A DNA stretch of 64,000 bases from Escherichia phage SpoonbillGilly: sequence record PP925828.1, one strand, 5' to 3'. Each line of letters starts with the position of its first letter. The first letter of the stretch is position 1. A model generated the notes under the pieces. It searched no databases and was not told the DNA's origin. It worked only from the letters and a program-made list of their open reading frames with translations. Below are positions 24,944-26,818 of the stretch, piece by piece. A program made the translations under genes and the position numbers.

Positions 24944-26818
24944 ATGAATCGCAATGAAGAACTAAAGTATAAAGGAATGCAGTCCTTGATTCGAAACTGC
25001 AAAGAAATTATCGAAGGTTCAGCAGATGAAGAGCTGCTGTTTAATAATGCCAATAAGCCCTCAGAACGTTTCCCTACACAAAGGGACATGCTTGCAGGGG
25101 AATTGAGTAAATATCTGATTCTGGAAGAAATGCCAATCCAGATTCGAAATGCTCACATGATTGGTGATATTCACTTCCATGATGCTGATTACGCTGCGTT
25201 AGGTATGACTAACTGTTGCCTGGTTGCTTTGGAAGATATGTTGAAAAACGGTATGAAGGTTGGTAATGCTGAAATCAGTACGCCAAACTCCATTACTACT
25301 GCGGCTGCTATTACAGCTCAGATTATTACTCAGGTTAGCTCCCATCAATATGGTGGTACTTCTGTAGACCGATTAGATGAAGTACTGGCTCCTTATGTTC
25401 GTAAGTCTTATGATAAGAATCATGCGTTTGCAAAGCGTTGGACTAAGGATGAAGCCAAAGCATCTGTAATGGCTACGGAAATGACTGAGAAAGAAGTTTA
25501 CGATGCCTGTCAAGGTCTAGAGTATGAAATCAATACGATGTTCAACTCTAATGGTCAGAGTCCATTTATTACCTTTGGTTTTGGTCTAGGAACTTCCTGG
25601 GAAGCACGTCTTGTACAGAAAGCAATCTTAGAAGTGCGTATGGATGGTTTGGGTATCAATAAACGTACAGCTATCTTCCCTAAACTGGTATTTGTTTTGC
25701 GTGATGGCGTAAATATGAAACCTGGTGATGTTAACTATGATATCAAGAAGTTAGCTATGAAATGTACTGCTGAACGTATGTATCCTGACTACATCAGTTA
25801 TGATAAGGTTGTAGAAGTTACGGGAGACTACAAAGTCTCTATGGGCTGTCGATCATTCCTAGCTGCTGCGGAAGATGGTGAAACTTCTGGCCGTAATAAC
25901 TTAGGTGTTGTTTCCGTAAACCTTCCTCGAATCGCTATCGAAGCGGAAGGAAATATTGATCTATTCTTCGATCTACTTGAGCTGCGTGTGGATACCGCGT
26001 TAAAAGCATTGGAGTGGAGGGTTGATCGCTTAAAATACATCCAAGCTAAAGCTGCGCCCATCCTCTATATGTCAGGAGCCTTTGGATTACGTCTGGGGCC
26101 AGATGAATATGTGTTTGATCATTTCTACAAGCGTGCTTCTGTATCTCTAGGATATATAGGCTGCCACGAAATGTTGCAGTTCATGTTTGGTAAAGATGTA
26201 GATACAATGTCTGAGTCTTGTGTCAAGTTCGTTCAACGTGTGCTACAATACATGCGTGATCGTGCTGATCAGAAGAAGGAAGAGACTCAATTAGGGTATA
26301 GTCTATATGCTACACCATCTGAATCTCTATGTGATCGCTTCTGTCGCCTAGACCGTGAGTATTTTCCAGAGCATGAAGATATTCTGGCTAAAGGATATTA
26401 CACTAATTCCCATCACCTTGATGTAGAACGTAAGGTTGCTCCAAACGTGAAGTTCGATTATGAGTCTAACTTTACTCCAATTGCTTCTGGTGGATGCATT
26501 TCCTATGTGGAATTGCCGGATATGAAACGATTCCCAGATGCACTGGAATGGGTTATTAACTATGCCGCAAGTAAAGTTCATTACTTTGGTATTAATACTC
26601 CAGTAGACTCTTGTGGGGAATGTGGGTTCTTGGGTGAAACTATAGCTTCTGAAGATGGTTTCAAATGCCCAATTTGTGGCAACCATGATCCTGAGACTCT
26701 TGAGGTAACTCGTCGAGTTTGTGGATATCTCGGAAATCCAGGTGCTCGTCCATTTAACCCAGGCAAACAGCATGAGGTTATGGGTCGAGTGAAACATCAG
26801 GACATTCGCGCTAAATAA
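24944..26818 (+). CDS. nrdD: anaerobic ribonucleoside-triphosphate reductase (class III)
   Basis: C-terminal glycyl-radical motif RVCGYLG, Zn-ribbon CGECG...CPICG; 624 aa. Confidence 0.85.
   Translation: MNRNEELKYKGMQSLIRNCKEIIEGSADEELLFNNANKPSERFPTQRDMLAGELSKYLILEEMPIQIRNAHMIGDIHFHDADYAALGMTNCCLVALEDMLKNGMKVGNAEISTPNSITTAAAITAQIITQVSSHQYGGTSVDRLDEVLAPYVRKSYDKNHAFAKRWTKDEAKASVMATEMTEKEVYDACQGLEYEINTMFNSNGQSPFITFGFGLGTSWEARLVQKAILEVRMDGLGINKRTAIFPKLVFVLRDGVNMKPGDVNYDIKKLAMKCTAERMYPDYISYDKVVEVTGDYKVSMGCRSFLAAAEDGETSGRNNLGVVSVNLPRIAIEAEGNIDLFFDLLELRVDTALKALEWRVDRLKYIQAKAAPILYMSGAFGLRLGPDEYVFDHFYKRASVSLGYIGCHEMLQFMFGKDVDTMSESCVKFVQRVLQYMRDRADQKKEETQLGYSLYATPSESLCDRFCRLDREYFPEHEDILAKGYYTNSHHLDVERKVAPNVKFDYESNFTPIASGGCISYVELPDMKRFPDALEWVINYAASKVHYFGINTPVDSCGECGFLGETIASEDGFKCPICGNHDPETLEVTRRVCGYLGNPGARPFNPGKQHEVMGRVKHQDIRAK

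Follow-up and report, generated by a model that had tools for sequence, protein, structure and literature searches.

A class III ribonucleotide reductase gene and its missing phage activase in the T5-like Escherichia phage SpoonbillGilly

The 64,000-nucleotide stretch of the Escherichia phage SpoonbillGilly genome analyzed here (sequence record PP925828.1, called the window below) carries nrdD, the gene for the catalytic subunit of a class III (anaerobic) ribonucleotide reductase (RNR). Neither the window nor the nearest complete phage genome yielded a phage-encoded activase, the radical S-adenosylmethionine (SAM) protein NrdG of complete nrdDG systems. The best explanation is that the NrdG of the host probably activates the phage NrdD, a reading to which we give odds of about three in four since the phage activase is absent, nrdD is under strong purifying selection, and nrdG is universal in E. 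coli.

NrdD and the search for an activase

The nrdD open reading frame (ORF) has exact limits, from an ATG start through its stop codon, and encodes a protein of 624 amino acids. The protein matches the Pfam families NRDD (E 1.9e-172) and Gly_radical (E 8.9e-23), clears the cut-offs of two NCBIfam equivalogs (NF006732, 840.5 bits with a cut-off of 657; TIGR02487, 587 bits with a cut-off of 326), and aligns end to end with the solved structures of the S. thermophilus (9D3X, 631 bits) and T4 (1H78, 588 bits) proteins. The radical glycine is Gly594 (nucleotides 26723-26725), which lies within the sequence RRVCGYLG, and the four cysteines of the Zn ribbon that precedes the glycine loop (C557, C560, C575, and C578) align with the T4 Zn ligands. 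The active site segments TNCCL (C91/C92), MGCRSF (thiyl C302), and GRNNLG (N319) align with T4 Cys79, Cys290, and Asn311 and with the E. coli residues. Pfam reports no ATP-cone in this protein, and the NF006732 alignment spans profile positions 87-706 only; the protein therefore lacks this N-terminal regulatory domain, as does T4 NrdD. On these sequence features the gene is confirmed to encode an intact E. coli-type catalytic subunit of a class III RNR. The first-pass annotation had described an NrdD with an intact RVCGY motif and Zn ribbon alongside an aerobic NrdAB, and both parts of that description are borne out, the first by Gly594, the four Zn cysteines, and the Pfam and NCBIfam matches, and the second by the nrdA and nrdB genes on the opposite strand (Table 1).

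The window is that of a T5-like phage of the genus Epseptimavirus, and its nrdD region matches hundreds of T5-like phage genomes (Demerecviridae, Markadamsvirinae). Closest to this region is Salmonella phage vB_SenS_UTK0010 (OQ359890.1; 113,248 bp; also genus Epseptimavirus; UTK0010 below), whose NrdD is identical to that of the window and whose nucleotide identity is 99.4% over window positions 24000-30500 and 96.5% over positions 1-25000. The last 25 kb of the window has its best matches in other T5-like phages at about 97% identity. In UTK0010 coordinates the window spans about 31.7-95.7 kb.

None of the eight ORFs 3′ of nrdD (0-4 cysteines each) contains the cluster motif CxxxCxxC, and Pfam gives no radical-SAM match among them; their products match Sir2, HAD_SAK_2, and DUF7415 (two proteins) or no family. 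Over the six frames of the whole window the motif is found in just three ORFs of 41-84 amino acids, which have no family match and no annotated counterpart in UTK0010; the 84-amino acid ORF falls in the late, leftward-transcribed region. The only annotated UTK0010 genes with the motif encode a protein with an HNH-type signature (judged from its sequence) and a 97-amino acid protein. A relaxed screen of the window and UTK0010 (three cysteines within 14 residues) returned candidates without a radical-SAM or Fe-S family in Pfam or NCBIfam, and precomputed Pfam matches over the 10 kb on each side of nrdD in two independent contigs include no radical-SAM protein.

Profile searches gave the same picture. 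An NrdG profile was built from 16 NrdGs (from E. coli, T4, Vibrio phages, and gamma-proteobacteria); true NrdGs score 227-284 bits against it at the E. coli, T4, and Vibrio phage Skimmer loci, and those of an Aeromonas phage and a metagenomic phage contig score 205 and 199 bits, respectively, but the profile has no significant match in the six-frame translations of the window and the complete UTK0010 genome. When 2647 six-frame ORFs of the window and UTK0010 were searched by phmmer with the T4 NrdG and a Vibrio T5-like phage NrdG, no match had an E below 0.3, and the 60 phage records with the greatest similarity to E. coli NrdG include no enterobacterial T5-like phage. Thus a complete nrdDG system, with a radical-SAM NrdG in the same genome, is found neither in the window nor in UTK0010. 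The first-pass statement that no ORF downstream of nrdD has the NrdG motif therefore stands by motif, cysteine count, Pfam, and profile, and the whole-genome CxxxCxxC search that it proposed, carried out on the window and UTK0010, uncovered no plausible radical-SAM protein. It had also named an NrdG-like ORF detected by profile as the observation that would overturn it; a single weak match of 9 bits, to a 93-amino acid ORF, was obtained and failed on follow-up (see below).

The 97-amino acid UTK0010 protein (27626-27919, minus strand, beyond the window) contains the sequence CxCxCxxCGNPRK, which formally includes CxxxCxxC, and belongs to no Pfam or NCBIfam family. It was rejected as an activase since it is too short and too unlike NrdG.

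The presence of nrdD without nrdG in T5-like phages is already known and is ordinary for the group. A survey of phage genomes with RNR profile hidden Markov models (HMMs) reported that many phages hold only nrdD along with nrdAB, and found this state in T5, EPS7, and SPC35 ("Enterobacteria phage cluster 4") (Dwivedi et al. 2013; PMC3653736); the phage entries of RNRdb in 2009 included 30 NrdD and 21 NrdG proteins (PMC2795772). T5, EPS7, and SPC35 resemble the window in having phoH between nrdAB and nrdD and no nrdG, and the window NrdD is 89-100% identical to theirs; the T5 reference differs in a 50-amino acid internal deletion in nrdD, and nothing else essential differs. The same pattern is visible in the counts of phage-database records, where an NrdD homolog is present in 2796 and NrdG in 2273-2287; the shortfall of about 510 records is close to the 531 that match the T5-like locus. 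For the Klebsiella phages, the difference between NrdD and NrdG is exactly 81 records, equal to the number of T5-like records (81).

Probable activation by the host and its alternatives

Comparison of nrdD with that of Escherichia phage OSYSP gives 0.010 nonsynonymous (dN) and 0.68 synonymous (dS) substitutions per site (dN/dS 0.015), and comparison with NBEco002 gives a dN/dS of 0.05. The gene is, as judged from these ratios, under strong purifying selection and not decaying. T5-like phages have at least three NrdD allele groups, with ≥~94%, ~73%, and ~60% amino acid identity to the window protein. All of them occupy the same locus next to phoH, their catalytic residues are conserved wherever inspected, and no NrdG lies within 2.5-6 kb of nrdD in any of the three; phages with the ~60% alleles were among those examined for a nearby nrdG. 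The phage nrdD is probably a working gene, and purifying selection is the evidence for its function.

These data bear directly on the idea that nrdD is an inactive relic, or has some non-catalytic role, because it cannot be activated. Such a relic would fit the T5 reference genome (IMG/VR 638276020; nrdD at 2501-4222 of the locus), in which an in-frame deletion of amino acids 392-441 removes the conserved SVSLGYIG segment that is kept in the window copy, and it would fit one IMG/VR relative with an nrdD ORF of merely 440 amino acids; Dwivedi et al. (PMC3653736) moreover called the function of incomplete RNR gene sets unknown. It is possible that nrdD may have been inactivated in some laboratory or natural lineages in this way. 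However, a relic would not be expected to show a dN/dS of 0.015-0.05 with saturating synonymous divergence, to retain every catalytic, Zn, and radical residue across alleles that are merely 60% identical, or to keep its perfect promoter, strong ribosome-binding site, and terminator, and ORFs of full length (609-630 amino acids) are present in 23 of the 29 IMG/VR relatives. We therefore consider a relic improbable.

The nrdD locus also shows signs of exchange. In some T5-like phages an endonuclease gene is inserted between the promoter and nrdD. Salmonella phage 2-3, which is of the same genus as the window phage and has an NrdD just 60% identical to that of the window, carries a T5orf172/treble-clef gene of the homing-endonuclease type directly 5′ of nrdD (5136-5999 of its locus), and NBEco002 has an annotated endonuclease in the same position (3325-3993 of its locus). 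This arrangement suggests that allele replacement of nrdD is linked to homing.

The glycyl radical is stable through many turnovers (PMC4493059), so that the catalytic activase need not be duplicated by the phage. In E. coli K-12, nrdG adjoins nrdD, and it was found in 5426 of 5426 complete E. coli genomes. The first-pass suggestion that the phage may rely on the host NrdG thus gains support from the ubiquity of the host gene and from the purifying selection on nrdD.

The window NrdD and those of E. coli and Salmonella belong to the same equivalog (NF006732) and are 54% identical, with a nearly identical glycine loop region, VTRRVCGYLG.P.ARPFN.GKQ.EV..RVKH. The host protein differs in having an N-terminal ATP-cone and a co-transcribed nrdG; the phage has neither and uses a consensus sigma-70 promoter. 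The T4 NrdD is a second informative comparison, since it is, like that of the window, an ATP-cone-less protein of about 600 amino acids (47-51% identical) with the same catalytic Cys, Asn, and Gly residues and Zn ribbon, in a phage that also has class Ia nrdAB genes. Unlike the window phage, T4 has its own nrdG two genes 3′ of nrdD, and an intron interrupts its nrdD. NrdG is proposed to make contact with NrdD at the C-terminal Zn-ribbon and glycyl-radical region (PMC4493059). In this region the T5-like NrdDs that lack an nrdG are 59-61% identical to E. coli NrdD, with 25-26 of 34 glycine loop residues identical (25 in the window protein), whereas T4 NrdD, which has its own NrdG, is 47% identical to E. 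coli there and has a more diverged glycine loop (18 of 34), in spite of its higher overall identity to E. coli NrdD (58% versus 52% for the T5-like proteins).

A third comparison is offered by the Vibrio T5-like phages (Demerecviridae, Ermolyevavirinae; for example, pVp-1 and Skimmer), which are of the same family and have nrdD in a similar early region, with the gene for a replication-origin-binding protein adjacent. Their NrdDs are longer (717-724 amino acids) and 53% identical to that of the window; the extra N-terminal ~110 residues align with E. coli NrdD and are presumably an ATP-cone. They carry nrdG four genes 3′ of nrdD on the same strand, and its product shares 57-60% identity with the NrdG of E. 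coli and 64% with that of Vibrio.

In the scheme that we propose, the phage would bring nrdD as an autonomous cassette, with a promoter and a terminator of its own, and would supply the catalytic subunit only. Having no ATP-cone, this NrdD would presumably escape the shut-off of overall activity by dATP. The host radical-SAM activase NrdG would install the glycyl radical on Gly594 as a one-time event, for which SAM and the reducing system of the host would be required, and formate from the host would be the reductant. NrdG is on hand in enterobacteria grown anaerobically because the host nrdDG operon is induced by FNR. The activated phage NrdD would then add anaerobic capacity for deoxyribonucleoside triphosphate (dNTP) synthesis to support phage DNA replication, and the phage nrdAB genes would serve aerobic infections. 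Recognition of the phage NrdD by host NrdG, the use of formate as reductant, and a benefit to the phage are the steps that we infer.

Several points weigh against activation by the host. The C-terminal likeness to the host protein is consistent with it but not diagnostic, because nrdG-carrying Vibrio and Aeromonas phages, which infect related hosts, also have host-like C-termini. The deletion in the T5 reference indicates that nrdD is dispensable at least in laboratory culture, and the doubt of Dwivedi et al. about incomplete gene sets applies here as well. The ~49 kb of the phage genome beyond the window were judged through UTK0010 alone, and we found no paper on activation of a T5-like NrdD by host NrdG. 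Finally, T4 NrdD reportedly needs its own NrdG, in which case cross-activation would not be automatic.

A different host activase, PflA (or PflC or YjjW), could in principle act on the phage NrdD in place of NrdG. RV.GY motifs are common to glycyl-radical enzymes, and UTK0010 encodes a glycyl-radical protein similar to GrcA/YfiD (28001-28369, minus strand, beyond the window; Pfam Gly_radical, 66 bits; TIGR04365, 118 bits, under the cut-off). GrcA-like proteins are activated by host PflA, so such phages already depend on host activases. E. coli nrdG mutants, on the other hand, cannot reduce ribonucleotides anaerobically although PflA is present, which argues that PflA is no substitute on substrates of the NrdD type, and the glycine loop and Zn ribbon of the phage protein are of the NrdD type and close to those of host NrdD. 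This alternative also seems improbable to us. The UTK0010 GrcA-like "spare part" resembles the phage NrdD in being a phage-carried glycyl-radical protein without a phage activase; it differs in being a small cofactor domain that repairs pyruvate formate-lyase, is not catalytic, and uses a different activase. It may help to keep the host pyruvate formate-lyase, and hence the supply of formate for NrdD, working.

The first-pass annotation had offered a second possibility, an activase encoded elsewhere in the phage genome. Only ~57% of the ~113-kb genome lies inside the window, and nrdG need not adjoin nrdD (it is two genes 3′ in Aeromonas phage 4_4572, and the Vibrio T5-like phages have it farther still). 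Nevertheless, the complete UTK0010 genome, with its identical NrdD and 96.5-99.4% identity over the first ~30 kb, has no NrdG match by profile or phmmer in six frames, its CxxxCxxC genes are only the HNH-type and family-less 97-amino acid proteins, the HMM surveys of T5, EPS7, and SPC35 found none, and 0 of the 60 phage records nearest E. coli NrdG are from enterobacterial T5-like phages. An activase elsewhere in the genome is effectively excluded by these results.

Equally implausible is a phage protein outside the radical-SAM family that takes the place of NrdG, recruits it, or is what remains of it, for which the candidate is the 93-amino acid ORF. It was examined as an NrdG remnant because it lies directly 3′ of nrdD, and it is the best NrdG-profile match in the genome (9 bits; per-sequence E 5.6e-5), aligning with NrdG positions 63-111 and including a GKDxWLW..Y match. 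However, a terminator separates it from nrdD, it has one cysteine, and its family is confined to T5-like phages and includes a 79-amino acid subfamily, about half of the family, that lacks the GKDxWLW..Y motif. Alignment of the family profile with the NrdG alignment by hhalign gave a probability of 0.14%. An AlphaFold2 model of the protein (predicted local distance difference test score, pLDDT, 74) has a helix followed by a four-strand antiparallel sheet, which is not the beta/alpha radical-SAM fold, and a Foldseek search of the model against PDB gave no radical-SAM match. The ORF was accordingly rejected as an NrdG or an NrdG remnant.

Promoters and a putative FNR box at nrdD

The predicted nrdD promoter is a perfect match to the sigma-70 consensus and is conserved in distinct T5-like upstream regions that lack an endonuclease insertion before nrdD. 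With its own promoter and a terminator-like hairpin just past the stop codon (Table 1), nrdD looks monocistronic. A second predicted promoter points leftward toward phoH, the DUF7430 gene, nrdA, and nrdB, and between the two divergent promoters lies an FNR-like palindrome, TTGACTCAGATCAA, that differs from TTGAT-N4-ATCAA at one position and is centered at about -69.5 from the predicted, unmapped nrdD transcription start. The host nrdDG promoter has FNR sites at -64.5 and -33.5 (PMC10245656), and the FNR-like box of the phage is at about -70.

The spacing of 27 nucleotides between the box and the -35 hexamer is identical in three lineages, namely the window, NBEco002 (perfect box), and Klebsiella phage Kpn2P1 (one mismatch), and in Kpn2P1 the rest of the intergenic region aligns poorly. 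A box of this quality arose in dinucleotide-shuffled intergenic sequence with P = 0.03 in the window and P = 0.001 in NBEco002, and only 11 sites of the quality of TTGACTCAGATCAA occur in the 113-kb UTK0010 genome. FNR boxes without a mismatch occur at the nrdD promoters of the Vibrio T5-like phages, with conserved half-sites and differing spacers, and there the box overlaps the -35 hexamer. Against a role for FNR, the box has two mismatches in many close relatives and three in the T5/OSYSP type, it is missing from the 73% allele clade, and the nrdD promoter is already full consensus with an unmapped transcription start. We found no paper on FNR at phage nrdD promoters. Functional FNR control of the phage nrdD is thus a lead and not a finding, and on this sequence evidence we regard it as doubtful. 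The wider idea that T5-like phages both outsource radical activation to the host and couple nrdD expression to host oxygen sensing must be regarded as similarly tentative. If it were true, nrdD would be boosted in an anaerobic host that already holds NrdG, and the intergenic region could act as an oxygen-responsive switch between the phage class Ia and class III reductases.

Three further observations concern such sites. In the T5-like phages with ~73% alleles (five loci), a TGTTA-N6-TGTTA/TGTAA direct repeat (for example, TGTTAATAAAATGTTA) lies ~42 to 27 nucleotides 5′ of the nrdD -35 hexamer, at the offset that the FNR-like box occupies in other phages; it resembles an ArcA-P box and would fit a coupling to host oxygen sensing, but might be fortuitous given the AT-richness of the DNA. 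The only perfect TTGAT-N4-ATCAA in the window, TTGATGTTAATCAA, is at 51772-51785, inside a small plus-strand ORF near the early/late gene boundary. No FNR box was found 5′ of the UTK0010 GrcA-like gene.

Neighboring genes and implications

Directly to the left of nrdD, on the opposite strand, are phoH, a gene for a DUF7430 protein, nrdA, and nrdB (Table 1). The nrdA product clears its curated cut-off; the best class Ia beta match of the nrdB product, NF006576, falls short of its own. On the other side, the plus-strand genes at 27574-30080, 3′ of nrdD, encode a Sir2-family protein, a phosphatase-like HAD_SAK_2 protein, and two paralogous DUF7415 proteins. The UTK0010 annotation includes a PnuC-like nicotinamide riboside transporter and a ribosylnicotinamide kinase at a location equivalent to about 6230-7970 of the window. 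Together these genes hint at a module centered on nicotinamide adenine dinucleotide (NAD).

Table 1. Features of the nrdD region in the 64-kb window (window coordinates).
Feature	Position	Strand	Basis or remark
nrdB, class Ia RNR beta, 381 amino acids	19890..21035	-	PF00268; NF006576 256 bits, under cut-off 346
nrdA, class Ia RNR alpha, 811 amino acids	21143..23578	-	TIGR02506 599 bits, cut-off 341
phoH-like ATPase	23839..24600	-	divergent from nrdD; ORF list, NCBIfam/Pfam
Predicted leftward promoter for phoH, DUF7430, nrdA, nrdB; TTGCCA-17 nt-TATAAT, 11/12	24806..24834	-	
FNR-like palindrome TTGACTCAGATCAA, TTGAT-N4-ATCAA, 1 mismatch	24845..24858	.	putative; 27 nt 5′ of nrdD -35 hexamer
Predicted nrdD sigma-70 promoter, TTGACA-17 nt-TATAAT, 12/12 consensus	24886..24914	+	sequence match
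Shine-Dalgarno AAGGAGG of nrdD	24932-24938	+	sequence match
nrdD, class III (anaerobic) ribonucleoside-triphosphate reductase catalytic subunit, 624 amino acids	24944..26818	+	ORF, Pfam, NCBIfam, structure alignment
Intrinsic-terminator-like hairpin, 10-bp stem, 6 GC pairs, and T-run	26825..26859	+	7 nt past nrdD stop
93-amino acid ORF, nrdG position of nrdDG operons	26917..27198	+	one cysteine; T5-like phages only
67-amino acid ORF, Sir2, HAD_SAK_2, two DUF7415	27208..30080	+	Pfam; none radical-SAM-like
Sir2	27574-28449	+	Pfam
HAD_SAK_2	28705-29244	+	Pfam
DUF7415 proteins, two	29247-29675, 29685-30080	+	Pfam

T5-like phages are common and count as phage-therapy candidates against enterobacteria of the gut, a largely oxygen-free setting. 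If a host activase is needed for the anaerobic dNTP supply of these phages, then the nrdG status of the host and the oxygen level would set phage replication in the gut. Activation by the host NrdG would, if true, also make these phages a clean case of a virus with only one half of a two-protein radical enzyme system, the stoichiometric and rate-limiting one.

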